Positions 761 through 56,287 of a stretch of 56,287 bases of DNA are shown piece after piece. The first letter of the stretch is position 1, and each line of letters opens with the position of its first letter. A program made the translations under genes and the position numbers. Below the pieces are notes generated by a model. That model did no database searches. It saw only the letters and a list, made by a program, of their open reading frames with translations, and was not told where the DNA came from. Origin of the DNA: a candidate division WOR-3 bacterium (GTDB lineage: Bacteria; Hydrothermota; Hydrothermia; LBFQ01; DSFT01); assembly GCA_026986535.1 (NCBI GenBank), contig JALSOK010000030.1, positions 1-56,287 on the forward strand. Reading direction: 5' to 3'.

Positions 761-967
761 ATGACCGGAGTAAGGCTGAGAGAGGGAGAGACCTTCGAGA
801 GCCTCCTCAAGAGGTTCAGGAAGGTGGTAATGCGGGACGGGATTCTCCAGGATTACAAGAGGCACATGGTGTATGAAAAGCCCTCCGAGAGGAGGAAGAA
901 GGCCCGCATTGCCGCCCGCAGAAGGTGGCTCCGCAAGCTGAGGAGGCTCCAGGAAGAGCTGAGATGA
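761..967 (+). CDS. rpsU: 30S ribosomal protein S21
   Basis: 68-aa very basic ORF with the typical S21 pattern (ESLLKRFRK...KRHMVYEKPSERRKK). An SD-like AAGGGGGTGA lies upstream. Confidence 0.9.
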   Translation: MTGVRLREGETFESLLKRFRKVVMRDGILQDYKRHMVYEKPSERRKKARIAARRRWLRKLRRLQEELR

Positions 968-5694: not shown

Positions 5695-6777
5695 TTACTT
5701 CCACCTCTTTTCCATTATCTGATCCGCCAGAATGTAGGGGCTCGTGTTCTTTTCTATGGACAGGGGTATGATTTCGTCCAGGTTCTTCCACACATTCTCT
5801 TTTGTCTTTTCTATGGCTATCTCCTTTGCCCTGTCCTTCGAGTCTATCTTGCCCTGCCTGTGCTCGTATTCGTAGTACACCAGCGTCAATCCCCCCAGGT
5901 TTATGGCGTAGTCGGGAGCATACAGGATTCCCCTTTCGTGGAGCCTCTGGGCCACATGTCTGTTCTCCACCTGATTGTTGGCGGCCCCTGCCACCACCTT
6001 CGCCTTTATCTTGTCCACTGTCTCATGGTTGATGACCTTCCCCAGAGCATTGGGGGAGAAGATGTCCACTTCCACATCGAACACATCGTCGGGCTGTACA
6101 TATTCCGCATCGGGATACTTCTCGCGCGCCATGTCTATCTTCTTCTGGCTCACATCCGTGTACAGGAGCCTGTAGCCCCTTTCGTTCAGAAACTCCATCA
6201 GGTACCATCCCACCTTACCGAGTCCCTGCACCAGGACGCTTATCTCCCCCGGGTCCTTCTTGAAGTGATTTTCGGTGAACCATCTGATGGCTTCCGCAAT
6301 ACCTATTGCGGTAACGGGGGAGGGGTCTCCCAGACCTCCCTGCTCCTCCGGAAGGCCCACCACATGGGAAGTCCTCTCGTACACATATACCATGTCGTCG
6401 GTGGTGGTTCCCACATCCTCTGCCGTTATGTACCTGCCCTGCAGGGACTCGACGAAGTCCCCGAAGCTGTGGAAAAGATTCCTGCGCACACCCGGAATGG
6501 GCTCGTAAAAGTCCCTTATGATAACGGATTTGCCCCCTCCGAGGGGGAGGTTGGCCGCTGCCGCCTTGTAGGTCATGCCCCTCGAGAGCCTCAGGGCATC
6601 CTCCAGAGCGAGCATCTGCTTTGCGGGATGGTTGTCGTAATGGAAGAACCTGCACCCGCCCAGGGCGGGACCCCTGTTGGTGTTGTGGATGGCTATTATG
6701 GCCACATAGCCACCGTATAACTCCTTAACATAGACTTTTTCCCATCCGTGTATGTCCAGCTCTTTAACATCAGACAT
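5695..6777 (-). CDS. Leucine (Leu/Val/Phe) dehydrogenase, Glu/Leu/Phe/Val dehydrogenase family
   Basis: Motifs AIIAIHNTNRGPALGGCRF, LPLGGGKSVI and Rossmann VLVQGLGKVG. I chose ATG 6777 (MSDVKEL) because GGAGG lies 7 nt upstream; the track ORF extends to 6795. Confidence 0.85.
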   Translation of the reverse strand: MSDVKELDIHGWEKVYVKELYGGYVAIIAIHNTNRGPALGGCRFFHYDNHPAKQMLALEDALRLSRGMTYKAAAANLPLGGGKSVIIRDFYEPIPGVRRNLFHSFGDFVESLQGRYITAEDVGTTTDDMVYVYERTSHVVGLPEEQGGLGDPSPVTAIGIAEAIRWFTENHFKKDPGEISVLVQGLGKVGWYLMEFLNERGYRLLYTDVSQKKIDMAREKYPDAEYVQPDDVFDVEVDIFSPNALGKVINHETVDKIKAKVVAGAANNQVENRHVAQRLHERGILYAPDYAINLGGLTLVYYEYEHRQGKIDSKDRAKEIAIEKTKENVWKNLDEIIPLSIEKNTSPYILADQIMEKRWK

Positions 6778-7462
6778 AATCGACCTCCTTTTCACTTGCT
6801 GTCAGCACATCATTTAGGGGGTGTTCCCGAAATTCCCTTTCGAATACCCGGCCAAAATGCTTTATCACAAGTTCTCTGACCATCTGCATGTCGTCCATTC
6901 CCCTCTGTTCGAATATGCTGGTGATTCCTTTTCCCCTCAGGCCGCATGGGACGATGTACTGGAAGTGCTCCTTTATGGGATTTACATACAGGGCGAATCC
7001 GTGGAATGTGGTCCAGTGGCTCACCGCCACCCCTATGGCGCATATCTTATCGTTGCCCACCCACACGCCCGTATAGCCCTCCTTCACCTCTGCCTCTATG
7101 CCGAGCTCCTGAAGAACTCCAAGAATCGCCCTCTCTATCTTTCTGACGAAGGGTCTTACCTCATCCAGCCCCCCTATGCGGAAGAACATGTATCCCATCA
7201 GCTGTCCCGGACCGTGGTAGGTTACATCCCCTCCCCTCTCCACCTCGAACACCTCTATCCCCTCCCCCTTCAGGTAATCGAAGGATACCAGAATGTTCTC
7301 CCTGTGCCCCTTCCTTCCCAGGGTTATGACGGGATCGTGTTCCAGCAGCCAGAGGGTGTCGGGAATGAATCCCTTTGCTCTGAGGGTGTGGAGTTTTCTC
7401 TGAATCTCCCATGCTTTAGCGTAGGGAACCCTTCCCGAATTTATGACCACCCCCCTTTCCAT
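6770..7462 (-). CDS. lipB: Octanoyltransferase (lipoyl(octanoyl) transferase) LipB
   Basis: LipB motifs RGGDVTYHGPGQL, KICAIGV and PCGL. There are two adjacent ATGs (7465 and 7462). The second sits 7 nt from a TAAAAT box. Confidence 0.9.
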   Translation of the reverse strand: MERGVVINSGRVPYAKAWEIQRKLHTLRAKGFIPDTLWLLEHDPVITLGRKGHRENILVSFDYLKGEGIEVFEVERGGDVTYHGPGQLMGYMFFRIGGLDEVRPFVRKIERAILGVLQELGIEAEVKEGYTGVWVGNDKICAIGVAVSHWTTFHGFALYVNPIKEHFQYIVPCGLRGKGITSIFEQRGMDDMQMVRELVIKHFGRVFEREFREHPLNDVLTASEKEVDYV

Positions 7463-7538
7463 CATCCAAATTTTAATGCCATCCCGGAAATTCCCTGTGC
7501 CGGTAAGGCGTGGAATTTGCGCAAATTTCCAAAACCTT

Positions 7539-7544
7539 TATAAT
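7539..7544 (+). promoter_or_regulatory. -10 box TATAAT, 7 nt upstream of the parA ATG (leaderless configuration)
   Basis: Reads CTTTATAAT-TTCGACT-ATG. Confidence 0.5.
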
Positions 7545-7551
7545 TTCGACT

Positions 7552-8328
7552 ATGTCGAAAATCGCTGTGGTTAATCAGAAGGGAGGCGTCGGAAAGACCA
7601 CCACAGTCGTCAATCTCTCTACAGCTTTCGCACAGCAGGGAAAGAGGGTTTTAGTGGTGGATGGAGATTCCCAGGCCAATGCCACCAGCGGATTCGGAAT
7701 AAATGCCCGCAAGATGCAGAACCTGTACCATGTCCTGATTGGTGAGGCCGATATAGACGATGTCATAGTGCATATAAAGGATGCGGGGGTTGATCTGGTC
7801 CCCTCTTCTCCGGATTTGATCGGTGTGGATGCGGAGATCAAGGACTTTGAGCACTGGGAGCTGTTCCTGAAGAACGCTCTGAAGAAGGTGGAGAGCAGAT
7901 ACGACTATATTTTTATAGATGCCCCCCCTTCCCTGGGAACCCTGACCATCCTCATTCTGGCTGCCGCCGATTCCGTCCTGATTCCCGTTCAGGCGGAGTA
8001 CTATGCTCTGGAGGGGGTGGCCCAGCTTCTGGAGACCATAACCCATGTGAGGAGGACCATAAACCCTTCTCTGAACTTGAAGGGGTTCCTTATAACGATG
8101 TTCGATAAGAGGACGAAGCTTGCGGAGCATGTGGAGGAGGAGATAAGGAGGATTTTCCCCAATCTGGTGTTCGATACGGTGATACCCAGGAGCGTCAGGC
8201 TGGCGGAGGCTCCCAGTTATGGACTTCCGGGGGTGATATATGACCCCACATCCTCGGGAGCGAAGGCCTATATGGAGCTGGCAAAGGAGATGTTGAGCCA
8301 TGAAGAGGAAGCAGCGGGGATTAGGTAG
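7552..8328 (+). CDS. parA: Chromosome partitioning ATPase ParA/Soj
   Basis: Deviant Walker A KIAVVNQKGGVGKTTT; ParA-type DSQANAT and IDAPPSLG motifs. Start at ATG 7552 (MSKIAV); the track ORF starts at 7510. Confidence 0.9.
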   Translation: MSKIAVVNQKGGVGKTTTVVNLSTAFAQQGKRVLVVDGDSQANATSGFGINARKMQNLYHVLIGEADIDDVIVHIKDAGVDLVPSSPDLIGVDAEIKDFEHWELFLKNALKKVESRYDYIFIDAPPSLGTLTILILAAADSVLIPVQAEYYALEGVAQLLETITHVRRTINPSLNLKGFLITMFDKRTKLAEHVEEEIRRIFPNLVFDTVIPRSVRLAEAPSYGLPGVIYDPTSSGAKAYMELAKEMLSHEEEAAGIR

Positions 8329-9124: not shown

Positions 9125-9906
9125 TTCTTTACCTGATGACTGTCACGGAGCTCCTGGTCGGCAGGGGAGCTTACGGAAACGAGCTGCTGGATAAGTTCAG
9201 CAATCCCCTCATGGTGGATGGGGGTGAGGTGGGATTTTCCACCAATCTCTGGATCATGGACAGCAGGATATACTCCGCCTTTGCGGGGAAGGGCAGGTTC
9301 GTCATCTATCTTTCCTACTACGACATGGGCTCCTTCACATACCAGTCCACTGTTCCCGACGACAGCTCCTGGCTCACATTCTCTCCATATTCCATGTTCG
9401 GAGCCCTTGCATGGAAATTCACTCCCGACAGGAATGTCCACATGTCCATAAGGGCGGGTTATTATGAGAACAGGGTTATGAACGATGGGGTCTCAGCTCT
9501 CCTGATGGATTTCGACCTGATGGCCACCTTCGGAAGGTTCGAGGGGGTTGCGTATTTCCACAACCTGAATCCCCTTCGCTTCTTCAGGGGGGGACAGCTT
9601 CTGGTTCCCTATATGCTCGGTGCAGGAATCCGATACACCCGGGACAGCTGGAGTGCGGTGGCCGGTGTGAGGAAAGTTATGGACAGGCAGATAGAGAAGT
9701 TCGCCACGCTGAACTACAGGATAGGCAGGCACTTCATGGCCGGAATTACCCTGGAGCCCGATTACCAGTACTCGAAATTCTCCCTCCATATGAAGGCGCA
9801 GAGGGGACCCCTGGCTCTGGCATACAGGGTGATGATCCCCTCCGTGCAGTCGGACCTCGTGCATATAGTGACGCTGGAGTACAACTATGCGGCCCCTGGA
9901 TTTTGA
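9121..9906 (+). CDS. Hypothetical protein, possible outer-membrane beta-barrel
   Basis: 261 aa with alternating aromatic/hydrophilic beta-strand-like segments and a C-terminal aromatic residue (..YNYAAPGF). Translationally coupled to parB (ATGA). No recognised catalytic motif. Confidence 0.4.
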   Translation: MILYLMTVTELLVGRGAYGNELLDKFSNPLMVDGGEVGFSTNLWIMDSRIYSAFAGKGRFVIYLSYYDMGSFTYQSTVPDDSSWLTFSPYSMFGALAWKFTPDRNVHMSIRAGYYENRVMNDGVSALLMDFDLMATFGRFEGVAYFHNLNPLRFFRGGQLLVPYMLGAGIRYTRDSWSAVAGVRKVMDRQIEKFATLNYRIGRHFMAGITLEPDYQYSKFSLHMKAQRGPLALAYRVMIPSVQSDLVHIVTLEYNYAAPGF

Positions 9907-10822
9907 AAGGCCCCTCTACGATATACTCGAGAAGATAAAGGAGCTGGAGATCCACCCCTCGCTCAGGCATAAGGTGGAGGAGCTCAGGAGGCAGGCGGAG
10001 GAACTGCGCAGGGACATATACGACAACCTGAGCAGGTGGCAGGTGGTCCAGATTGCAAGGCATCCCGACAGGCTTAAGGCAAAGGACTACATAGAAGCCA
10101 TATTCGAGGACTTCGTGGAGCTTCACGGGGACAGGCTGTACGCCGATGACCATGCCATAATATCCGGTGTGGGCAGGATAGGGGGGATGTCCGTCGTCCT
10201 CATAGCACAGGAGAAGGGCAGTACCACCACTGAGAAAATCAGGCGCAATTTCGGTATGCCCCATCCGGAGGGATACAGGAAGGCCATGAGGATGATGGAT
10301 GTGGCCCAGAAGTACCGCATGCCCATAATTACCCTCGTGGACACTCCCGGTGCATATCCCGGAATAGGGGCTGAGGAGAGGGGGCAGTTCTCCGCCATAG
10401 CATACAGCATCAGGAAGATGCTCTCCGTGCGGACCCCCACCCTTTCCTACATCATAGGGGAAGGGGGGAGCGGGGGTGCTCTGGCCATAGCCGTGGCAGA
10501 CAGGGTCTTCGCCCTGCAGTACAGCATATACTCCGTTATTTCTCCCGAAGGGGCTGCATCCATCCTCTTCAGGGATGCATCCAGGGCCCCCGAGGCGGCA
10601 GAGGCCCTCAGGATCACAGCCCGGGATTTGATGGAGCTTGGTATTGTGGATGGCATCGTGGAGGAACCGGTAGGGGGGAATCACTGGAATCCGTCCGCCA
10701 TGCTGGAGACTCTGCGGGAGCATATAATAGGCCAGATTACTGAGCTCGTGTCCATACCGATGGATGAACTCCTGGAGAAGAGGTACGAAAAGTACAGGAG
10801 AATGGGGCTGGTTTCCACATGA
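9887..10822 (+). CDS. accA: Acetyl-CoA carboxylase carboxyltransferase alpha subunit
   Basis: Typical AccA N-terminus (LDFERPLYDILEKIKELE), then HPDRLKAKDYI, FVELHGDR, DTPGAYPG, EERGQ and IIGEGGSGGAL. Confidence 0.85.
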   Translation: MRPLDFERPLYDILEKIKELEIHPSLRHKVEELRRQAEELRRDIYDNLSRWQVVQIARHPDRLKAKDYIEAIFEDFVELHGDRLYADDHAIISGVGRIGGMSVVLIAQEKGSTTTEKIRRNFGMPHPEGYRKAMRMMDVAQKYRMPIITLVDTPGAYPGIGAEERGQFSAIAYSIRKMLSVRTPTLSYIIGEGGSGGALAIAVADRVFALQYSIYSVISPEGAASILFRDASRAPEAAEALRITARDLMELGIVDGIVEEPVGGNHWNPSAMLETLREHIIGQITELVSIPMDELLEKRYEKYRRMGLVST

Positions 10823-11721
10823 GGATTCGAATAACCGAAGTGGGTCCCCGCGACGGCCTTCAGAATATAAAGGTTCCCATACCCACGGATGCGAAGGTCC
10901 GGATGGTGGACATCCTTTCGGAGAGCGGCGTGGAGGAGGTGGAGGTTTCTTCCTTCGTCTCTCCCAAATGGGTTCCGCAGTTGTCCGACGCGGAGGAAGT
11001 ATTTCGCCGCATAAAGAGGCGGGAGGGGGTCATATACTCGGCCCTCGTTCCCAACCTCAGGGGGCTGGAGAGGGCTCTCTCGGTGGGGGTGGATAAGATA
11101 GCCCTCTTCACTGCTGCCAGCGAAACCTTCAACAGGAAGAATACCAATGCCACCATCGAGGAGAGCATAAGGCGATTCATTCCGGTGGTGCGGGAGGCCA
11201 GGAATTCGGGGCTTGTGGTGAGGGGATACATCTCTACCGCTTTCCACTGCTACTTCGAGGGAAGGATTCCACCAGAGAAGGTTCTGGAAGTGGCGGTTCG
11301 CCTGTTCGATATAGGGGTGGATGAGGTGTCCCTCGGGGACACCACGGGAAGGGCAGTTCCCGAAGATGTAAAGAGGCTTTTAGAGGTTATATTGAGGGAT
11401 TTCCCCCCGCAGAAGATAGTGCTCCACTTTCACGATACATACGGAATGGGCATCGCCAATGTGTGGACAGCATACTCGGAATTCGGGATAAACCGCTTCG
11501 ATTCGTCGGCCGGGGGGCTGGGGGGGTGTCCATTCGTTCCCGGGGCCAGCGGCAATGTGGCCACGGAGGATGTGGTCTTCCTTTTCGAGCAGTCCGGTGT
11601 GGAAACCGGAATTGACCTCCGCAGGGTGGTGGAGGGGGCCAGGGTCATCGTGGAGGCCACGGATGGATGCGTTGGGCTGCAATCCCATATATCGAAGGTG
11701 CTCGAGAGGGGACGGCTTTGA
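10819..11721 (+). CDS. Hydroxymethylglutaryl-CoA lyase (HMGL-like aldolase)
   Basis: Motifs RITEVGPRDGLQN, SFVSPKWVPQ, HFHDTYGMGIAN and GLGGCPF. ATGA overlap with accA. Confidence 0.85.
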   Translation: MRIRITEVGPRDGLQNIKVPIPTDAKVRMVDILSESGVEEVEVSSFVSPKWVPQLSDAEEVFRRIKRREGVIYSALVPNLRGLERALSVGVDKIALFTAASETFNRKNTNATIEESIRRFIPVVREARNSGLVVRGYISTAFHCYFEGRIPPEKVLEVAVRLFDIGVDEVSLGDTTGRAVPEDVKRLLEVILRDFPPQKIVLHFHDTYGMGIANVWTAYSEFGINRFDSSAGGLGGCPFVPGASGNVATEDVVFLFEQSGVETGIDLRRVVEGARVIVEATDGCVGLQSHISKVLERGRL

Positions 11722-11978
11722 AAGAAGGGCGGGGAGGACCCCACCCCATTGTTCCGACCAGTGGTAGTCTGAATGGATTTTTCTACTGATACTGCCAATT
11801 GCTATGTCCTACCGCTATGGAGAGAAATTCTATTCCCTGATTCTGTACAGAATCAATCGAGAACGGTATTAATCCACGGTTTGCCCATCTACCCTGCGAA
11901 TTTTTCCACCGATGGGGAAAATTTCCTCCTGAATATGCAGGAAATCCTGCAGGAAGTAAAGAGGCAGATTAACTCTCA

Positions 11979-24146: not shown

Positions 24147-26849
24147 TCAGCATCCGGATTCCTTTCTCCTCTTCTTCACAGGAGGGACGAACATGGGATT
24201 CTCCTGGACCCTTATGCGGGCATCCACGACTTTCGCCCCCTTCCCCTTTTCGAACACGATTACGGGGTTCATATCCATCTCCACTATGGGGCTCAGGTCG
24301 TCCACCATCTGTCCCACTCTCATTATGATTTCCTTCAATTTCTCCACATCGTATTCGGGGCCTCCGCGGTATCCCCTGAGGAGGGGATATGTTCTGAGGG
24401 ATGTGATCATCTCCTCCGCATCTATATCCGTGATGGGGGTGATTCTGACGGATATGTCCTTGAGGAGCTCCACATAGATGCCCCCCGCTCCAGTCACCAC
24501 TATGGGACCGAATATGGGGTCGTGGGTGACGCCCACCAGCATCTCCTGTCCCCTGGGGACCATCTCCTGAATCATCAGCCCCTTCACCCTGTATCCCTTT
24601 TCCTCGAGGGATTTCACCATCTCCTGTGCTGTTTTTCTGACATCTTCGGGCCTGATGTTGAGCCTGACGCCTCCCACATCCGTCTTGTGGGTCACCCCCT
24701 CTATTACTGCTTTTATGGCCACCGGAACACCCAGTTCTCTGGCGAATGCCTCCGCCTCATCGTAGTCCTTCACCACCTTCATGCGGGCTGTTGGTATTCC
24801 GTACGCATTCAGCACGGCCCATGTGTCCTCCGGCGAGAGCCACTCATCGCCGCGGGAGAGGGCTCTGGATATCACGATTGCCGCATCCTCTTTTCTGACA
24901 TCGTCGAACTGGGGCACCTGCCCCTCCGGGCGGCGCAGGTATTTCCCGTACTCCATCGCTTTGGAGAGGGCCCTGGCTGCAGTTTCCGGGAAAGGATAAG
25001 AGGGTATCTTTATATCCCCCTCCTGAAGCAGGTTGGATATTCCGGCCGATGCCATGAAGACGGAGAGAACGGTTATGTTGTTGCCCTCCTGCCTCAACTC
25101 CTTCACTGCCTTCAGGATGTTCTTCGCCACATCCTGCGGGCTTATGAGCAGGGGCTGGATGAAGATCACTATGATGGCGTCCACTTCACCGCTGTTCGCC
25201 ACCACCTTTATGGCCCTGTAGTAGTTCTCCGGCGTGGCGGATGCGATCATGTCCACGGGGTTGTAGAATCCGGCTTCCGGAGGCAGGAACTCCTTCAGTT
25301 TTCTGATGGTCTCTTCGGACAGCTCCGGAACCTCCATCCCGAAGGCCTCGCTGGCATCTGCCGCCAGTATTCCCGCCCCTCCGGCGTTGGTGATGATCCC
25401 CACCCTGTTTCCTGCGGGAACCGGCTGTGTGGCCAGCAGAGCCGCCACCTCGAACATCTCCTCTATCGTATCCGTTCTTATGACTCCGGACTGATGGAAC
25501 AGGGCGTTGACGGTTACATCCGAAGTGGATACCAGCGCTCCCGTATGGGACTGGGTGGCCCTGAACCCTGCGGAGGATCTTCCGCTCTTGACCGCTATTA
25601 TGGGTTTCTTCTTTACTATCCTCTTTGCAATCCGGGAGAATTTGCGGGGATTTCCGAAGGATTCCAGGTACAGGAGGATGATTTCTGTCATGGGGTCCTC
25701 TTCCCAGTAGAGCAGAAGGTCATTTGCCGATATGTCGGCCTTATTGCCCACGGAGATGAAGTTGGACATACCCAGCCCCAGCTTGTTGGACTGGTCTATA
25801 ATCGTCACCCCCAGGGCCCCCGACTGGGAGAGGAATCCTATTTTGCCGGGCATGGGGACGAATGGGGTGAACTGGGCGTTGAGGCGCACTTTCGGGTCCG
25901 TATTCACTATGCCCAGGCAGTTGGGTCCTATGAGCCTCATTCCATACTGCCTGCATATCTGGACCAGCTCCTCCTGTAGCTTCCTTCCCTCTTCGCCGGT
26001 TTCTGCGAATCCTGCGGTGATGACCACGAGGGCCTTTACCCCCTTTTCCCCCGCCTCCCGGGCAACCTGCGGAACGAATCTGGCTGGAACCGTTATCACC
26101 GCCAGGTCTATTTCATCGGGTATGTCTTTTATGGACCTGTATGCCTTTACCGACTGGACCACATCCGCACGGGCATTGACCGGATATACGGGGCCGTTGA
26201 ACTGGTAGCTCAGGATGTTCCAGAAGATTTCACCGCTCACACCTCCCCTCTTTCTGGACGCTCCTATGACAGCGACGCTCCGGGGGTAGAGGAAGTACTT
26301 AAGGGCCTCTCTGGCCGCTATTGCTTCCTTCTCCTCGAAGTACCTCAGGGCTTCCGGCAGGAGGGATGAGGGGACTATTGCCGTGACCATTCCCGGCTTC
26401 GTTTCCAGTTTTACCGGGAATCCCAGTTTCTTGAGGACGCTGAGCATCCTGTAGTTGCCCTCCGATACGGATGCGTGGATTTCGTTGATTCCGTTGAGGC
26501 GGGCAAACTCTATGATGTGGCCGGTCAGAAGGGTTCCAAGCCCCTTCCCCTGGAAATCGTCCGCTATGATGAGGTGAATGCTGGCTTTGTCCTCATCGAT
26601 TCTCTCGAAAGAGGCGTGTCCAACTATGCGGTCGTTTCTGAGGGCTATCAGCACCCCCCTTCCTTCCGATGGCATCAGTTTTTCCACCGCCTCTTCGGGG
26701 GGGATGTCTTTAAGAAATCTCAATCTCAGGCTTTCTATCGAGAGCCTTTTGACGAAGTCTTCTATGAGGGGTCTGTCCTGCTGTGTGGCGCTCCTTACCT
26801 CCACAACGGAGCCGTCGTTCAGGGTGAGAACTTCTTTGTATGTTTGCAT
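24147..26849 (-). CDS. GNAT acetyltransferase fused N-terminally to an ADP-forming acyl/acetyl-CoA synthetase (CoA-binding, ligase-CoA and ATP-grasp domains)
   Basis: 900 aa. GNAT motif A is FQGKGLGTLL near residue 100. CoA-binding VAVIGASRKRGGVSG. The conserved phosphohistidine context QSHTGAL is present. ATP-grasp region at the C-terminus. Confidence 0.85.
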   Translation of the reverse strand: MQTYKEVLTLNDGSVVEVRSATQQDRPLIEDFVKRLSIESLRLRFLKDIPPEEAVEKLMPSEGRGVLIALRNDRIVGHASFERIDEDKASIHLIIADDFQGKGLGTLLTGHIIEFARLNGINEIHASVSEGNYRMLSVLKKLGFPVKLETKPGMVTAIVPSSLLPEALRYFEEKEAIAAREALKYFLYPRSVAVIGASRKRGGVSGEIFWNILSYQFNGPVYPVNARADVVQSVKAYRSIKDIPDEIDLAVITVPARFVPQVAREAGEKGVKALVVITAGFAETGEEGRKLQEELVQICRQYGMRLIGPNCLGIVNTDPKVRLNAQFTPFVPMPGKIGFLSQSGALGVTIIDQSNKLGLGMSNFISVGNKADISANDLLLYWEEDPMTEIILLYLESFGNPRKFSRIAKRIVKKKPIIAVKSGRSSAGFRATQSHTGALVSTSDVTVNALFHQSGVIRTDTIEEMFEVAALLATQPVPAGNRVGIITNAGGAGILAADASEAFGMEVPELSEETIRKLKEFLPPEAGFYNPVDMIASATPENYYRAIKVVANSGEVDAIIVIFIQPLLISPQDVAKNILKAVKELRQEGNNITVLSVFMASAGISNLLQEGDIKIPSYPFPETAARALSKAMEYGKYLRRPEGQVPQFDDVRKEDAAIVISRALSRGDEWLSPEDTWAVLNAYGIPTARMKVVKDYDEAEAFARELGVPVAIKAVIEGVTHKTDVGGVRLNIRPEDVRKTAQEMVKSLEEKGYRVKGLMIQEMVPRGQEMLVGVTHDPIFGPIVVTGAGGIYVELLKDISVRITPITDIDAEEMITSLRTYPLLRGYRGGPEYDVEKLKEIIMRVGQMVDDLSPIVEMDMNPVIVFEKGKGAKVVDARIRVQENPMFVPPVKKRRKESGC

Positions 26850-49575: not shown

Positions 49576-49647
49576 AGCGGGAGACGGGATTCGAACCCGC
49601 GACCCCCTGCATGGCAAGCAGGTGCTCTACCACTGAGCTACTCCCGC
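49576..49647 (-). tRNA. tRNA-Gly (anticodon GCC), no encoded CCA
   Basis: The minus strand reads GCGGGAG-TA-GCTC-AGTGGTA-GAGC-A-CCTGC-TTGCCAT-GCAGG-GGGTC-GCGGG-TTCGAAT-CCCGT-CTCCCGC-T. This folds into a cloverleaf with a 7-bp acceptor stem, GCC in the anticodon loop and a U discriminator, followed by a T-run. Confidence 0.9.
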
Positions 49648-52490: not shown

Positions 52491-52814
52491 ATGCTGTGGC
52501 TGTTTCTCGTCTCCCAGTGCTCCTGCCCCCCGATGGATGATATGGGTGCTGTCGCCCGCTCCGATATGGTGTTCGAGGGGGTTGTGGATAGTGTAATCCG
52601 GGACTCTGTTCGGGGATATGTGTTCGATGTGTCCTTCGTTATAAAGGGGCCCGACACCGGCAGGGTGGTGGTGTGGACCCCCGACTCGTGCGGGGTGGAA
52701 TTCAGAAGGGGCGGTGAGTACAGGGTTTTCTCCAGGCTGGTCGATGGAAAGTTGATTACGGACGCCTGCTCCGGTTCCTATCCCATCTATTCGGAAGAGG
52801 AATATGATCAATAG
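52491..52814 (+). CDS. Small Cys-containing protein resembling the TIMP / NTR N-terminal domain
   Basis: After a 9-aa hydrophobic leader the sequence reads CSCPP...SDMVFEGVV...YVFDVSFVIKG...VVVWTPDSCGVEF..GGEYRVFSRLVDGKLITDACSGS. This parallels TIMP-1 CTCVPP...SDLVIRAKF...YEIKMTKMYKG...[36 protein letters not shown]. It overlaps the recJ start by 11 nt. Confidence 0.5.
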   Translation: MLWLFLVSQCSCPPMDDMGAVARSDMVFEGVVDSVIRDSVRGYVFDVSFVIKGPDTGRVVVWTPDSCGVEFRRGGEYRVFSRLVDGKLITDACSGSYPIYSEEEYDQ

Positions 52815-54426
52815 GGCCATGAAGATTCACGAGAAAGTGGAGGAGGTTCTGCGCCTTCGGGGGATGGACGATGATGACATCGAGATGTTTCTCAATCCCT
52901 CTGTGGAGCAGATAAGGGACCCGGGGGGGCTGAGGGATATAGACAGGGCTGTGGACCTCATAATCCACCACATGAGGAGGGGAAGCACCATCATGGTCCA
53001 CGGGGATTACGATGCCGATGGAATAACTGCCCTTTCCCTCCTGTACCGGGTCCTTTCCCGTGTTTACAGTCCGGATAAGCTGGTTCCCTACATACCGGAC
53101 AGATTTGTGGAGGGATATGGCCTGTCCATGCGGGCTGTTCGAAAGGCTGTGGAGGATGGGATTTCCCTCATCATAACCGCCGACTGTGGAATTACATCCG
53201 TGGAGGAGGTGGAGGAAGCCCGCAGGCACTCGGTAGATGTGATTATTACGGACCACCACGAGCCCCCGGAAACCCTGCCCCGGGCCAGTGCGATAGTTCA
53301 CCCCATGCTGAGCGGGGATTACCCGTTCAGGCACCTGACGGGGGTGGGGGTGGCTTTCAAGCTCATGCAGGCCCTGTACAATCGTCTGGGCAAGCCGTTT
53401 CGCCATTTGCTGTGGGACCTGGATCTGGTGGCCATAGGTACTGTGGCGGATATGGGGGAGCTGGTCGATGAGAACAGGGTTATGGTGAGCCTTGGACTGA
53501 GGGTTCTGCGGGAGACGAAGAAGGCCGGCCTCAAGGCCCTCAAGTTCGTCGTGGGGGTTGATGGATATGTGAGCACCTGGCACATCGCTTTTCTTCTGGC
53601 CCCCAGGCTCAACTCTGCGGGGCGCATCTCGGACCCCATGCACTCCTTCAATCTTCTGACGGAAAGGGATGGGAACAGGGCCCTCCTCCTGAGCCACAGG
53701 CTCAATCGCCTCAATCAGGAGAGGCAGAAGTACGAGAAGAGGATTCTGGACAGGGCGATGGCCCAGGCCATGCGGAAGGCGGGAAGGGATGTTCTGGTTC
53801 TGTGGGACTGGGGATGGCATGAGGGGATAATAGGGATAGTGGCTTCCAGAATCGTCAGCAGGTGGAACAGACCGGCCATAATCATCTCGGTCCAGGGGGA
53901 GACCTCCCGTGGAAGTGCCAGGAGTACGGAGGGTTTTCATATGCAGAGGGCCCTTTCCGAGCTTTCCTATATGTTCGAGAACTTCGGTGGGCACGAGATG
54001 GCGGCTGGTTTCACCATAAAAACCGAGTATCTCGAGGAGTTCGAGGAGAAGATAAACCGGATAGCAAGGGAGCATTTCGCCGGTTATGAGCCCTCCACTC
54101 CCGATGCCGAGGCGGTCCTTCGCCCCCATGACCTGAATGACCTGTTCGTGCGGGATATGAGGAGAATGGCCCCATTCGGTAATGGAAATCCCTCCCCCCT
54201 CTTCCTGATGAATTCCCTGAAGGTGGTGGGAAAGGAGCTCAGGGGCAGAACCCTGTACATAACACTTTCCACCGGAAGGGATGAGCTTTACGGCCGCATA
54301 TACGACCCCTCCGACAGGTGGATGGGTCTGAAGGAGGGGGATGTGATCGATTTGCTCATGAAGTTCCGGGAGGTGGTGAGGCTCGGCGGCCAGTTCCTCA
54401 TAGAACCCGTGGATTTTTCCAGGTGA
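52804..54426 (+). CDS. recJ: Single-stranded-DNA-specific exonuclease RecJ
   Basis: Motifs VHGDYDADGITA, ITADCG, ITDHH and GGHEMAAG (DHHA1). Confidence 0.9.
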   Translation: MINRAMKIHEKVEEVLRLRGMDDDDIEMFLNPSVEQIRDPGGLRDIDRAVDLIIHHMRRGSTIMVHGDYDADGITALSLLYRVLSRVYSPDKLVPYIPDRFVEGYGLSMRAVRKAVEDGISLIITADCGITSVEEVEEARRHSVDVIITDHHEPPETLPRASAIVHPMLSGDYPFRHLTGVGVAFKLMQALYNRLGKPFRHLLWDLDLVAIGTVADMGELVDENRVMVSLGLRVLRETKKAGLKALKFVVGVDGYVSTWHIAFLLAPRLNSAGRISDPMHSFNLLTERDGNRALLLSHRLNRLNQERQKYEKRILDRAMAQAMRKAGRDVLVLWDWGWHEGIIGIVASRIVSRWNRPAIIISVQGETSRGSARSTEGFHMQRALSELSYMFENFGGHEMAAGFTIKTEYLEEFEEKINRIAREHFAGYEPSTPDAEAVLRPHDLNDLFVRDMRRMAPFGNGNPSPLFLMNSLKVVGKELRGRTLYITLSTGRDELYGRIYDPSDRWMGLKEGDVIDLLMKFREVVRLGGQFLIEPVDFSR

Positions 54427-54446
54427 GTACAGTTCCCGGTGCGGTA

Positions 54447-54452
54447 TAAAAT
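54447..54452 (+). promoter_or_regulatory. -10 box TAAAAT (TATAAAAT), 6 nt upstream of the PLD-HerA ATG
   Basis: Reads GGTATAAAAT-TGGCTC-ATG, 20 nt after the recJ stop. Confidence 0.45.
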
Positions 54453-54458
54453 TGGCTC

Positions 54459-56287
54459 ATGCGGATACTCGGCAGCGATGAAATTGGCGAAAAGGTAATC
54501 GAAATGGTGAAAGGCGCCAGCGATTGCGTCTGCATGGCTTCCGCATGGATCACAGGGGGTGCTGTGGAGAGAATCGTGAGGGCCATTCCCGATGGGGTCA
54601 GGGTTCAGGTGGTGATACGGGCCTCCGAGTTTGCTGACCTGAGGATAACCGATGATAGGGTTTTTGCCCTCCTGCGAGGGAAGGGGGCGGGGATATTTCT
54701 GAACGACAGGCTCCATGCCAAATTCGTAGTGGTGGATGGCAGGGAAGCGGTGGTGGGGTCTGCCAATATCACCGCGAGCGGATATTCCCCTTTCGAGAGG
54801 GGAAATATCGAGGCGGCCGTTTACTACAGCCGGCACGATGACGAGGAGCAGATCCGGGAGCTTCTGGATTACTTCGGGAGGATTCTGGAGGCTTCGTATC
54901 CCCTGAACGACAGCCTGGTGGGATATGTGATAAATCCATCGGGGACCAGAAGTCTGCGGGCCATATTGCTGGACCGCCGCGTGCAGGAGTACTCCTTCGT
55001 GGAGATAGGGGATGGGGTACTGGGGAGAATCGACAGCATCAGGTCTTACAGCGCGGGATTCTTCAACAATCCCTTCGAGGATGGATACAGCGATGTGTAT
55101 GCTCCCACGGGGGACTTCATGGAGATTTTTTCCCACAATCGGGACATGGACTGGATGAGGGCCGCGGTGTATTCCTATTTGAACGAGAGGGCCAGAAAGG
55201 TGAGAATTGCCACGGTATCTATTCTGGGCCGCATTCGTGGGCAGGAGGATGGTTCCTTCAGGCTGGAGCCATTGAGTGTGCCGGCCGATGTTGGAGAGCC
55301 CGTCTATGTATCCGGGAAGGTGGGTCATTTGCTTTCAAAAGGGGGAGTGGCAATCGGAAGGCTGTACGGTTTCGATACCCCCGTGGAGATAGACCACAGG
55401 CAGATTCTCAGAAAGCACATGCTCGTTCTGGGCAATACCGGTTCCGGCAAGAGCTACTTCACAAAGCTCTTCATCAGCAGGCTGGCGGAGAAGTCGGAGG
55501 ATGTGGGCAGGATCGTGGTGCTCGACCCCCACGGAGAATATGCCCGGGCCTTTGCAGGGGATGATGAGGAGGGAAGGTTCCGTTTGAGCAACATGAAGGT
55601 GCTGCGGCTGAGGGATGTCTTCTTTCTGGATGACGCGAGGGATGTGGTGGATTTTCTCTCGGAATACGGAGCCCTCATGCCCTCTTCCAATTCGGAGGTT
55701 TACAGGAACCTGCAGTCTGCCATCGTGGAATGGCTCAGAAATCCCTCGGGCAGTCTGCGGGATGAGATTCGGAAGGTGGATTTTGGAAAGTATGAGTACA
55801 ACAGAGAGACGATAGAGGAGGCTTTCGATTCCATGGAAGAGGAGTTCGGTCCCGATTTCTTCAGGAGTGTTTGGGATACCAGGAAGCGGATAGAGGAGCA
55901 TCTGAATCTTTCGGGCACTGTGGTATTCGACCTCAGCGGTGTGACGGTCCCGACCATAAGGGTGCATATTGCCGGCTTTGTGATGAGGAGTCTGTTTCTT
56001 AAGGCCCGTAGGGAGGAAGCATACGACGCCCTTATAGTGCTTGAGGAGGCCCACAACTTTGCCCCCGAGAGGGGCTACGGGGAGGTGTCCGCCGGCAGGG
56101 ATAATCCGGCTCTCGTCTGGGCCAGGAAGATTGCCAGCGAGGGGAGGAAGTTCGGGGTGGGTCTGGTCACCATAACCCAGAGGCCCGCACAGGTGAGCAA
56201 GTATGTCCTTGCCCAGATGAATACGCAGATGATGTTCAGGACGGTAAATTCGCAGGATATAGATGCAGTCAGAGAGTTTGTGGAATT
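54459..56287 (+). CDS. PLD-family (single HKD) nuclease domain fused to a HerA/FtsK-type ATPase; 3' end outside the window
   Basis: This ORF is not in the supplied track because it has no stop before the window end. My manual translation from ATG 54459 is open for 609 codons. HKD motif LHAKFVVVDGREAVVGSANIT. HerA motifs VLGNTGSGKSYF, ALIVLEEAHNFAP, GRKFGVGLVTITQRPAQV and AQMNTQMMFR. Confidence 0.85.
   Translation, partial: MRILGSDEIGEKVIEMVKGASDCVCMASAWITGGAVERIVRAIPDGVRVQVVIRASEFADLRITDDRVFALLRGKGAGIFLNDRLHAKFVVVDGREAVVGSANITASGYSPFERGNIEAAVYYSRHDDEEQIRELLDYFGRILEASYPLNDSLVGYVINPSGTRSLRAILLDRRVQEYSFVEIGDGVLGRIDSIRSYSAGFFNNPFEDGYSDVYAPTGDFMEIFSHNRDMDWMRAAVYSYLNERARKVRIATVSILGRIRGQEDGSFRLEPLSVPADVGEPVYVSGKVGHLLSKGGVAIGRLYGFDTPVEIDHRQILRKHMLVLGNTGSGKSYFTKLFISRLAEKSEDVGRIVVLDPHGEYARAFAGDDEEGRFRLSNMKVLRLRDVFFLDDARDVVDFLSEYGALMPSSNSEVYRNLQSAIVEWLRNPSGSLRDEIRKVDFGKYEYNRETIEEAFDSMEEEFGPDFFRSVWDTRKRIEEHLNLSGTVVFDLSGVTVPTIRVHIAGFVMRSLFLKARREEAYDALIVLEEAHNFAPERGYGEVSAGRDNPALVWARKIASEGRKFGVGLVTITQRPAQVSKYVLAQMNTQMMFRTVNSQDIDAVREFVE

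Follow-up and report, generated by a model that had tools for sequence, protein, structure and literature searches.

HerA-nuclease rings are central to two questions, how thermophiles process DNA ends and how HerA-based immunity destroys invading DNA. A stretch of 56,287 nucleotides from a candidate division WOR-3 bacterium (hereafter the window) ends inside a reading frame that combines a phospholipase D (PLD)-fold nuclease domain with a HerA-type ATPase in one polypeptide. This locus raises the question of whether the frame is a genuine gene, and of whether its product belongs to the repair or to the defense side of HerA biology.

Integrity and expression signals of the fusion gene

The ORF listing for the window leaves out frames that run off the source, and over this region it shows only two antisense ORFs. 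The first-pass annotation had pointed this out and had proposed a hidden ORF of 609 codons, truncated at its 3' end, which proved to be real. The features at issue are as follows.

52804..54426, + strand: recJ (DHH, DHHA1, and RecJ_OB by Pfam), the upstream neighbor, listed as context and not as a family-wide partner
54445..54453, + strand: promoter-like -10 element TATAAAATT, ending 5 nt before the ATG (its TATAAA hexamer ends 8 nt before)
54459..56287, + strand: PLD-HAS-HerA fusion gene, 609 of 643 codons, cut by the window edge; identified by its open frame, 643-aa orthologs, and dN/dS
54288..55328 and 55335..56054, - strand: two antisense ORFs from the ORF listing, shadows of the fusion gene

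Translation from the ATG at 54459 to the end of the window gave 609 codons with 0 stops. A strain variant (P0243, with 2 differences in 609 residues, or 99.7% identity) and an ortholog (P0001, 97% identical) come from independent assemblies, and both encode intact proteins of 643 aa, from which it follows that only 34 codons of the gene lie beyond the window. Comparison with three orthologs gave dN/dS values of 0.12 to 0.13 for the gene and 0.04 to 0.18 for its three domains taken separately (0.09 to 0.17 for the PLD domain); every domain is thus under purifying selection. A Pfam search found no family for either antisense ORF, and we therefore treat both as shadows of the fusion gene. The sense frame that runs over them has homologs and is under purifying selection.

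Truncation could in principle conceal a stop or frameshift and make the ORF a pseudogene or an assembly artifact. The 3' end of the gene does lie outside the window, and a homolog on the Aquifex plasmid ece1 is visibly decayed. Against this stand the uninterrupted frame, the low dN/dS, the conserved start codon and promoter element, and the two intact near-identical proteins. We consider the possibility exceedingly improbable, as it is effectively refuted by the dN/dS values and the intact variants.

The annotation had also assigned the gene its own leaderless-type -10 box directly after recJ. This assignment gains weight from the observation that TATAAAATT is invariant in four orthologous spacers (window, L001, L003, and L005) that have otherwise diverged, and that it is unchanged in L003 in spite of a 45-nt insertion. 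Of the 51 genes in the window, 13 have this element in front of them, where about 0.7 would be expected, and it is thus a promoter type common in this genome. No Shine-Dalgarno sequence was found between the element and the ATG, which predicts a leaderless or very short-leader transcript. A strict scan for sigma-70 two-hexamer (-35/-10) promoters and terminators found nothing at the fusion gene, and the promoter assignment is based on conservation and recurrence of TATAAAATT rather than on that scan. An Rfam scan of the window detected a single tRNA only.

Domain composition of the fusion protein

Taken together, profiles, structure models, and Foldseek searches support the annotation's reading of one chain in which a PLD nuclease domain with a single HKD motif is fused to a HAS barrel and a HerA ATPase. 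The full-length model has a pLDDT of 85.5 and a pTM of 0.75. The domains and motifs, all on the + strand, are the following.

54459..54893, + strand: N-terminal single-HKD PLD-fold nuclease domain, residues 1-145 (Pfam, PADLOC, model, Foldseek)
54711..54773, + strand: HKD catalytic motif LHAKFVVVDGREAVVGSANIT, residues 85-105 (H86, K88, D93, G100, S101, N103)
54801-54821, + strand: conserved E118, 3' of the HKD motif (GNIEAAV; family conservation)
54906..55391, + strand: HAS-barrel domain, residues about 150-311 (weak Pfam match, model strands, Foldseek)
55392..56285, + strand: HerA/FtsK-type RecA-like ATPase domain, residues 312-609, with the last 34 residues beyond the window
55425..55460, + strand: Walker A/P-loop VLGNTGSGKSYF, residues 323-334 (G325 to K331; family conservation)
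56028..56066, + strand: Walker B ALIVLEEAHNFAP, residues 524-536 (invariant LEEAH, L528-E529-E530-A531-H532)
56142..56195, + strand: GRKFGVGLVTITQRPAQV, residues 562-579 (R563/K564 and a QRPA motif)

The N terminus falls within the PLD superfamily: Pfam PLDc_2 matches residues 15-141 at 38.1 bits (cutoff, 27; E = 1.6e-9), the PLDc active-site motif profile matches residues 82-105, and PADLOC models of the DrmC type (6e-12) and for the Mokosh PLD proteins MkoB/MkoC match as well. The HKD motif reported earlier is complete, fits H-x-K-x4-D-x6-G-S-x-N, and occurs once per chain. Across 29 family members, K88, S101, N103, and E118 are invariant, and conservation of H86, D93, and G100 is 90% or higher. 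The modeled domain (pLDDT, 93.5) has its best full-domain Foldseek matches in NucT (TM 0.77/0.73) and Nuc (0.75/0.75), followed by Zucchini, PLD3/4, and BfiI, with TM scores of 0.6 to 0.77 for Nuc, NucT, Zucchini, and PLD3/4. Of the earlier comparison to Nuc/BfiI-type enzymes, the Nuc part is thus borne out, and BfiI ranks lower. The domain has the NucT/Nuc fold, yet it is no NucT ortholog (NucT equivalog NF010490, 23.7 bits against a cutoff of 211; E = 4.3e-5). The DISARM DrmC equivalog NF038319 likewise scored below its cutoff (35.8 bits against 133), and no DISARM genes lie near the fusion gene in the window or the orthologous contigs. PLD/HKD superfamily chemistry is metal independent, and in single-HKD PLD nucleases catalysis is EDTA resistant and proceeds via a phospho-histidine intermediate.

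Some PLD folds do not cut nucleic acid, and the domain might instead be a DNA-binding, regulatory, or lipid-directed module on a HerA that only translocates. Its top structural matches include FAM83 pseudo-PLD domains and the TrmBL2 domain, lipid-directed PLDs occur among the PDB profile matches, and in family member P0029 the catalytic His is replaced by Arg. We nevertheless think such a role very unlikely, given the conservation of the full HKD motif and downstream Glu across the family, the strong constraint on the PLD domain, its attachment to a DNA motor, and the fact that single-HKD domains this small (Nuc, NucT, Zucchini, BfiI) are typically nucleases.

The HAS-barrel-like segment of the annotation holds up by structure and falls short by sequence. 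Pfam HAS-barrel matches residues 154-257 at 17.8 bits, below its cutoff of 25.2 (E = 0.0037). The model places beta-strands at residues 153-198 and 247-311, around a low-confidence insert (about 200-250) that contains a conserved GFFxNPF motif and the invariant W232, and full-length Foldseek alignments to HerA structures extend over 513 to 638 columns. A HAS-barrel fold is thus supported by the predicted model and its alignment to HerA structures, despite the subthreshold sequence score.

For the ATPase, all of the HerA motifs listed previously were found where expected, including AQMNTQMMFR at residues 585-594. Pfam DUF87/HerA central domain covers residues 298-511 at 84.6 bits (cutoff, 23.2; E = 1.4e-23), PADLOC HerA models match down to 8e-36, and HerA chains were matched in a PDB sequence search. 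Foldseek ranks two HerAs of the repair type, SsoHerA (4d2i, 4e-33) and Tko HerA-NurA (9x1m, 2e-31), first, and then the defense HerAs. G325, T327, G328, S329, G330, and K331 of the Walker A motif are invariant in the family, as are G562, R563, K564, Q574, R575, P576, and A577 in GRKFGVGLVTITQRPAQV, where we infer that R563/K564 is a candidate arginine finger. None of the specific HerA families claims the protein: it scores 104 bits against the 970-bit cutoff of archaeal HerA equivalog NF040819 and 87.5 against 800 for NF040937, and among the anti-phage HerA equivalogs it scores 96.4 against 800 (NF042943) and 64.1 against 850 (NF042944).

Neighborhoods and inheritance of the family

In the branch of the window, the fusion gene lies between recJ and, on the downstream side visible in orthologous contigs, genes for an MFS transporter, a CAP-domain protein, and GcvP. 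Genes for DnaN, ClpXP, GatB, and L19 are found near it in the window and in orthologous loci. Gene calls of the window locus and its orthologs included no defense or mobile genes, and no nurA, mre11/rad50, Sir2, or DUF4297 neighbors occur in the window or the orthologous contigs. The earlier suggestion that any partner genes lie beyond the window was not upheld: orthologous contigs extend the locus past the 34 missing codons and contain no partner gene. We also considered recJ as a functional partner across the family and rejected it, as the adjacency is limited to the window's own branch. There the synteny persists down to 61% identity, with a metallophosphatase gene separating the two in the 61% ortholog, and DHH proteins account for only 2 of 114 neighbors family-wide.

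All-against-all clustering of neighbors placed no cluster in more than 19 of 85 fusion loci, and the neighbors are of housekeeping type. A Pfam census of 114 flanking genes listed Dtd (18), CoaE (13), Obg (6), GT2, GAPDH, and homoserine dehydrogenase, and NurA, Mre11/Rad50, Sir2, and DUF4297 were absent among the 25 families listed. The fusion therefore has no conserved partner gene. Its closest nonfusion relatives are archaeal stand-alone DUF87 proteins that sit next to EamA, RimK, Ham1, HtrA, NAD-synthase, or Lhr and have no NurA beside them. Descent of the fusion from a NurA-linked HerA is thus unsupported, and the annotation's statement that the fusion replaces the usual trans partner stands as an analogy only.

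The PLD-HAS-HerA architecture is represented by about 50 to 60 clusters (50% identity) among 1.84 billion representative proteins, and is thus rare but real. The implied novelty was overstated, since such proteins are already in public databases under generic names. A search of full-text literature found no description of a PLD-HerA fusion, nor of the PLD-HAS-HerA combination specifically; an earlier mention is possible in Iyer et al. 2004, which reportedly catalogues nuclease fusions of HerA.

The family has its center in Aquificota and occurs sporadically in other thermophiles; among named genomes, the closest is a WOR-3 metagenome-assembled genome (MAG). In a neighbor-joining tree, clade II tracks Aquificota taxonomy. 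Gene order is conserved as coaE>fusion<dtd across Thermocrinis, Hydrogenobacter, and Pampinifervens and as PGK-YaaD-GT2>fusion in three diverged members. Most copies, that of the window included, are in housekeeping synteny of this kind. Others are in defense islands beside a pAgo gene: P0016 and P0019 occupy variable islands with McrBC, AbiEii, TumE, and DNA methyltransferases and have in common a conserved fusion-N6_Mtase-Piwi(pAgo) block. The decayed ece1 copy in Aquifex aeolicus, which belongs to the window's major clade, is found among toxin-antitoxin PIN/AbrB, AbiEii, and Fic genes and IS5. Outside Aquificota the distribution is patchy and crosses phyla, with two copies in some MAGs.

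There is now evidence on both sides, resection and defense. By analogy to HerA-DUF4297, Sir2-HerA, and HerA/FtsK "capture" systems, the protein could be a single-gene anti-phage or anti-plasmid effector in which the PLD nuclease destroys invading DNA that the HerA ring has captured, the housekeeping neighborhood being incidental. The islands, the plasmid copy, and the patchy spread all fit such a role. So do the PADLOC results, in which HerA models are the best-scoring profiles and the N terminus resembles DrmC and Mokosh PLD proteins. PLD nucleases are known as helpers of pAgo immunity (PMC11442185), and archaeal HerA-NurA has itself now been suggested to be antiviral (PMC12977600). The haloarchaeal pAgo-associated PLD protein AgaP is a different protein and has no HerA module. 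We regard the defense role as credible but unlikely. The window and its orthologs have housekeeping surroundings, and the conserved family synteny together with the taxonomy-tracking phylogeny indicates long vertical inheritance, which is unusual for defense genes. Searches found no homolog on phages, scores against the anti-phage HerA equivalogs are far below their cutoffs, and there is no obvious sensor or regulator to hold a constitutively fused nuclease in check.

DNA uptake or exchange offers another reading, in which the motor would pull in exogenous DNA and the nuclease would trim or degrade one strand, by analogy to NucT in Helicobacter transformation and to CedD, a HerA-like ATPase of the crenarchaeal DNA import system. 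NCBIfam matches to CedD (4.9e-19) and NucT, the rank of NucT among the structural matches, and weak FtsK, TrwB, and VirB4-type profile matches are in its favor. All of these CedD, NucT, and FtsK-type scores are far below family cutoffs, however, and the weak matches are attributable to the shared P-loop fold. The 25 families listed in the census of 114 flanking genes include no competence, pilus, or Ced family, and profile searches of the protein gave no membrane-related domain. An uptake role is accordingly most improbable.

Proposed mechanism and relation to known systems

Both catalytic modules carry full, family-conserved motifs. We think it probable that the gene encodes a self-sufficient 643-aa enzyme, a hexameric DNA-translocating nuclease whose role would be to degrade or process linear DNA in an end-dependent manner. 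As other HerA proteins do, it would assemble as a hexameric ring through whose central pore double-stranded DNA is threaded at the expense of ATP. Because the PLD domains are joined directly to the N terminus of the HAS barrel, they would sit on top of the HAS face of the ring, the face that the NurA dimer occupies in archaeal HerA-NurA. One HKD motif makes up half an active site, so the PLD domains would have to pair, as in Nuc, NucT, Zucchini, and BfiI; six of them may form three composite metal-independent active sites, or may pair across two stacked rings. With a HerA ring that threads DNA and paired PLD sites, the enzyme would load at free ends and break the DNA down while pumping it, which would make it analogous to HerA-NurA and HerA-DUF4297, with the nuclease supplied in cis. 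For this genome and for most Aquificota it would be a vertically inherited chromosomal gene with that function, and, as with RecBCD, such an activity could both process double-strand breaks and eliminate linear DNA of foreign origin. Several points weigh against this enzyme model. Its hexamer, its paired PLD domains, and its placement of the nuclease with respect to the pore are predictions; PLD-fold domains can be noncatalytic, although the invariant HKD residues argue otherwise; and the defense islands, plasmid copy, phylum jumps, and two-copy MAGs fit defense at least as well.

Archaeal HerA-NurA (Sulfolobus 4d2i, Thermococcus 9x1l/9x1m) gave the highest-ranking full-length structural matches. 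Like the fusion, it has a HerA ATPase and comes from thermophiles; it also has a HAS barrel and couples a ring motor to a nuclease on the HAS face, as predicted for the fusion. The nuclease of the fusion is PLD/HKD, whereas NurA is RNase H-like and Mn dependent; it is supplied in cis, at six copies per predicted ring versus one NurA dimer; and its listed flanking families include neither NurA nor Mre11 or Rad50. As a translocase-nuclease, HerA-NurA digests double-stranded DNA from the ends, and whether it serves resection or antiviral degradation is debated (PMC12977600), much as it is for the fusion. HerA-DUF4297 (8xau, 8ziq, 9c1m) and Sir2-HerA/Nezha (8j4u, 8su9, 8wiv) show strong ATPase profile and structural similarity, and their HerA hexamer is platform and activator for an effector (a nuclease in HerA-DUF4297), a role to which that of the fusion may be likened. 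They resemble the family, too, in that some of its members lie in defense islands. Their effector (Cap4-like nuclease or Sir2 NADase) is separate, in a two-gene operon, unlike the partnerless PLD fusion, which misses their NCBIfam cutoffs and, in the window, has housekeeping synteny.

The single-HKD nucleases Nuc (1byr), NucT (6ehi), Zucchini/MitoPLD (4ggj), and the BfiI N-terminal domain (2c1l) share with the PLD domain its size of about 150 residues, its fold (TM up to 0.77), one HKD per chain, and, by prediction, an active site formed through dimerization. They are stand-alone proteins or, in BfiI, carry a DNA-recognition domain, and none is known to be joined to a ring translocase; the sequence identity is just 15 to 24%. 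Among defense systems, an NTP-driven DNA or RNA motor is combined with a nuclease in PbeA (HKD plus SF2 helicase), Mokosh MkoB/MkoC, and DISARM DrmC, and the 3'-5' exonuclease-HerA/FtsK proteins and DndH, in which HerA/FtsK is fused to a nuclease, follow the same design principle; cis fusions of nuclease and HerA/FtsK have been described (PMC10853773). Members of this group differ from the fusion in having an SF2 motor instead of HerA, or in that the nuclease joined to HerA/FtsK is of a non-PLD type, and the proteins belong to multigene systems.

A. aeolicus lacks PriA and RuvAB, and surveyed RecBCD/AddAB-bearing genomes all have PriA, with the one exception of a genome lacking RecA (PMC1193525); Aquifex is thus implied to have neither RecBCD nor AddAB. 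NurA/HerA homologs have also been reported in A. aeolicus (PMC4641729), which weakens the idea of the fusion as the sole end-processing machine. Tentatively, and more as a doubtful extension than as an expectation, a single-polypeptide, metal-independent, ATP-driven DNA-end-degrading ring may provide Aquificota and a few other thermophilic bacteria, this WOR-3-like lineage among them, with the missing functional counterpart of RecBCD/AddAB and HerA-NurA. It would have a symmetry mismatch of six motor subunits to three composite HKD sites, or consist of two rings stacked via PLD dimers.

A cis fusion to a PLD nuclease fixes stoichiometry and dispenses with a partner, and would thus provide a compact model of a six-fold motor that feeds DNA to pair-built active sites. 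As a predicted processive nuclease that is driven by ATP, thermostable, and resistant to EDTA, the enzyme could also find use as a reagent; should it prove to be just one more defense effector, the gain is modest. The proposal of an antiviral archaeal HerA-NurA makes the question of repair versus defense timely. With core synteny in most Aquificota on one side and pAgo/McrBC islands and a plasmid copy on the other, this family would be a good test of whether "repair" and "defense" HerA nucleases are really different.

The PLD-HAS-HerA gene and its modules

Translation from the ATG at 54459 stays open for 609 codons, to the end of the window, as the first-pass annotation had claimed. The ORF lister leaves out ORFs that run off their source, and at this place it shows only two antisense ORFs, neither of which has a Pfam match:

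54288 to 55328, minus strand: antisense ORF opposite the fusion gene
55335 to 56054, minus strand: antisense ORF opposite the fusion gene

Two 643-aa homologs are intact: P0243, which differs from the window protein at 2 of 609 positions, and P0001, an ortholog with 97% identity. Only the final 34 codons of the gene thus fall outside the window. For three orthologs (97%, 79%, and 78% identity), the Nei-Gojobori dN/dS was 0.12 to 0.13 overall and 0.04 to 0.18 when the PLD, HAS, and ATPase modules were taken one by one; purifying selection acts on all three modules alike. Beside these intact and constrained copies, a pseudogene is a minor alternative.

The motifs named in the first-pass annotation were each located where expected:

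Residues 85 to 105: HKD motif, the PLD catalytic motif
Residues 323 to 334: Walker A
Residues 524 to 536: Walker B
Residues 562 to 579: GRK...QRPAQV
Residues 585 to 594: AQMNTQMMFR

Profile searches placed the N terminus in PLDc_2 (residues 15 to 141; 38.1 bits, cut-off 27) and the later part in DUF87/HerA (residues 298 to 511; 84.6 bits, cut-off 23.2), and PADLOC and NCBIfam profiles agreed on two modules, PLD and HerA. The HAS-barrel model matched residues 154 to 257 weakly (17.8 bits, cut-off 25.2). Across an alignment of 29 family sequences, the HKD residues H86, K88, D93, G100, S101, and N103, the downstream E118, the P-loop (G325 to K331), the Walker B LEEAH, and R563/K564 with the QRPA motif were invariant or at least 90% conserved, so the single-HKD nuclease and the HerA ATPase both look catalytically competent.

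AlphaFold2 modelled the full-length 97% ortholog with confidence (pLDDT 85.5, pTM 0.75), except for the HAS-barrel insert (about residues 200 to 250) and a short loop (541 to 545). Among PDB structures, the predicted whole chain appeared closest to Sulfolobus HerA (4d2i; E=4e-33), then to Thermococcus HerA of the HerA-NurA complex (9x1m; 2e-31), and next to the Sir2-HerA and DUF4297-HerA defence complexes. When only the first 152 residues were modelled, the pLDDT reached 93.5. The PLD domain model matched the single-HKD dimeric nucleases NucT (TM 0.77/0.73) and Nuc (0.75/0.75), as well as Zucchini, PLD3/PLD4, and BfiI, and the sequence profile of this domain retrieved PLD-family chains, NucT and Nuc among them. 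Matches to the non-catalytic FAM83 and TrmBL2 domains were also obtained; set beside the conserved HKD residues, a non-catalytic PLD domain is a minor alternative.

The HAS-barrel insert (window 55056 to 55205), although predicted with low confidence, holds a conserved GFFxNPF motif and an invariant W232; in clade II, one of the two major branches of the family tree, the motif is absent and the tryptophan is kept. Oligomerisation, PLD docking, or DNA contact may take place through this insert.

The spacer between recJ and the ORF is 32 nt long, has no Shine-Dalgarno sequence, and contains one promoter-like element:

54445 to 54453, plus strand: TATAAAATT, promoter-like element in the recJ-ORF spacer

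Four orthologous spacers share this element at an unchanged distance from the ATG; one of them carries a 45-nt insertion, and outside the element the spacer sequence has diverged. In 13 of 51 window genes (about 0.7 expected), a TAAAAT-like hexamer stands 10 to 17 nt before the start codon; in the form T(T/A)TAAAATT, the element is placed 6 to 9 nt before the ATG, and these genes have no Shine-Dalgarno sequence. Examples are the starts at 19223(+), 21977(-), 26849(-), 31857(-), 44014(-), 44358(-), and 54459(+). A strict sigma-70 two-hexamer scan gave no match for the fusion gene promoter. Because the element is conserved and recurs window-wide, the proposed leaderless-type -10 box after recJ is supported as the normal promoter type of the lineage. 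This sequence pattern suggests that leaderless transcripts are common there, and the fusion gene probably has a transcript of its own.

Distribution and gene neighbourhood

Among 5.8 billion proteins, a word-indexed search returned 31 with the PLDc_2 plus DUF87 architecture, and among the 24,390 HerA-like matches of an exhaustive profile search (1.84 billion representatives), roughly 50 to 60 clusters (50% identity) cover both modules. The architecture is unchanged in a longer subgroup of 730 to 755 aa. Public databases name these proteins only in general terms (hypothetical protein, DUF87 domain-containing protein, PLD phosphodiesterase domain-containing protein). When each GTDB species is represented by a single genome, many Aquificota carry the fusion: Aquificaceae (among them an Aquifex aeolicus MAG), Thermocrinis, Hydrogenobacter, Pampinifervens, Hydrogenivirga, Persephonella/Hydrogenothermaceae, and Desulfurobacteriaceae/Thermovibrio. 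Carriers outside Aquificota are sporadic: a WOR-3 MAG, which among named genomes has the protein nearest to that of the window (79% identity), Archaeoglobaceae, Kryptonium, and MAGs with the labels Thermotogota, Blastocatellaceae, and Acidobacteria. Neighbour joining gave a tree with two major clades. The branching of clade II agrees with Aquificota taxonomy, and clade I joins the window's branch with Desulfurobacteriaceae, marine Aquificaceae, and the scattered phyla. In three MAGs a clade I copy and a clade II copy occur together.

Partner genes had been placed beyond the window, and this was not borne out. Orthologous contigs have recJ upstream of the fusion gene and an MFS transporter, a CAP-domain protein, and GcvP downstream. 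When all neighbours were clustered, no family occurred in more than 19 of 85 loci, and the commonest families were housekeeping genes belonging to one sub-clade. A Pfam census of 114 immediately flanking genes gave Dtd, CoaE, Obg, GT2, GNAT, GAPDH, homoserine dehydrogenase, MoaC, and others, with NurA, Mre11/Rad50, Sir2, and DUF4297 absent from the listed families. The fusion has no conserved partner gene in these loci.

Some gene orders are conserved. In Thermocrinis, Hydrogenobacter, and Pampinifervens the fusion gene has CoaE on its upstream side and a convergent Dtd gene on the other. A GT2-fusion order recurs in three diverged members representing both clades, with only about 35 to 42% identity to the window protein: L089 (2754 to 7625), L002 (7117 to 11932), and L092 (7047 to 9926). 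In L089 and L002 the order extends to PGK-YaaD-GT2-fusion. This common order suggests either in-situ replacement or very fast-diverging orthologs. For the contig locus L088, which carries a 61% identical ortholog, a metallophosphatase gene (Pur_ac_phosph_N plus Metallophos; 6664 to 7866) on the opposite strand separates recJ from the fusion gene, so the two are not an obligatory operon.

The closest non-fusion relatives are archaeal (Aenigmatarchaeota) DUF87 proteins of 680 to 690 aa (L071, L073, L074, L078, and L081; genes at about 9870 to 11950), with a C-terminal extension of about 230 residues that has no Pfam match and conserved synteny with EamA, Ham1, and HtrA genes. None has NurA beside it. 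Since these relatives also lack an adjacent NurA, the earlier reading that the PLD domain replaces NurA stands as a functional analogy only, not as a demonstrated displacement.

Proposed mechanism and known systems

The fusion is a stand-alone protein in which a probable HAS barrel lies between a single-HKD nuclease domain and a HerA ATPase, both of which appear competent. We think it reasonably probable that it acts as a hexameric dsDNA pump with paired PLD sites and end-dependent degradation of linear DNA. A HerA-type hexamer would form and pump dsDNA, and the PLD domains, because they are attached to the N terminus of the HAS barrel, would be located on the HAS face of the ring, where NurA sits in HerA-NurA. 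They would pair into composite, metal-independent active sites, either three per ring or in pairs across two stacked rings, and linear DNA would be degraded from its ends.

The fusion would thus be like HerA-NurA and HerA-DUF4297 in its way of working, yet it is a member of neither, since its equivalog scores fall 8- to 13-fold under the cut-offs and the partner genes are absent. HKD-helicase fusions are already known (PbeA and Mokosh), as are cis fusions of a nuclease with HerA/FtsK (a 3'-5' exonuclease; DndH) (PMC10853773). No description of the PLD-HAS-HerA combination was found in the literature searched. This fusion is real, conserved, and uncharacterised.

Housekeeping and defence

The case for a dedicated defence function draws in part on homologs in variable islands and on a plasmid. 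The islands around P0016 and P0019 contain McrBC, AbiEii, TumE, and DNA methyltransferases, and the two loci have a fusion-N6_Mtase-Piwi block in common. This block, with a convergent N6 DNA methyltransferase and a Piwi-domain (pAgo) gene, spans 8001 to 13772 in L086/L087 and 7353 to 13134 in L091; the upstream parts of the two metagenomic contigs differ (McrBC and DNA methylase versus AAA_23/TumE/AbiEii). Possibly the block is a defence module, linked to pAgo, that employs the fusion protein. Haloarchaeal pAgo immunity is assisted by PLD nucleases, and the PLD protein there has no HerA module (PMC11442185). A 2026 study made the case that archaeal HerA-NurA breaks down the two strands of DNA alike and could itself act against viruses (PMC12977600). 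The sole full-length plasmid match is on ece1 of A. aeolicus VF5, where the neighbours are PIN/AbrB, AbiEii, and Fic genes together with an IS5:

NC_001880.1 26335 to 28291 (locus L085, 11166 to 13122): ece1 homolog, clade I, 40.6% identity to the window protein

The ece1 copy is interrupted three times, by stops at codon 7 and within the ATPase and by a frameshift that follows the HKD motif, and RefSeq annotates it as two CDSs; the lesions could be true decay or errors in the 1998 sequence.

The conserved syntenies (coaE/dtd, PGK-YaaD-GT2, and recJ) and a clade II phylogeny that tracks taxonomy argue for housekeeping, no phage-borne homolog was found, and we consider dedicated defence the less likely role; DNA-uptake processing is a minor alternative. 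Also in favour of housekeeping, the rest of the window is ordinary chromosome (a MutS2-like protein, DnaX, DnaN, ClpXP, GatB, L19, and RecJ). Its other features include the following:

925 to 2889, plus strand: MutS2-like protein (MutS_V), abutting the next gene
2886 to 5639, minus strand: convergent 917-aa TPR-CHAT protein; CHAT proteases are often components of conflict or signalling systems
24147 to 26849, minus strand: 900-aa fusion of a GNAT acetyltransferase and an ADP-forming acyl-CoA synthetase (CoA_binding, Succ_CoA_lig, ATP-grasp_5), the architecture of Pat-type protein lysine acetyltransferases
49576 to 49647, minus strand: the window's one Rfam match, a single tRNA gene flanked by the genes for L19 and GatB

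RuvAB and PriA are missing from A. aeolicus, and the RecBCD/AddAB-bearing genomes surveyed all have PriA, with the one exception of a genome lacking RecA (PMC1193525); together these imply that RecBCD and AddAB are both absent from Aquifex. Such an absence would leave space for another end-processing machine, but Aquifex is reported to have NurA/HerA homologs as well (PMC4641729). In the genome of the window, the more likely role of the fusion is vertically inherited, end-dependent DNA processing with RecBCD-like dual use.
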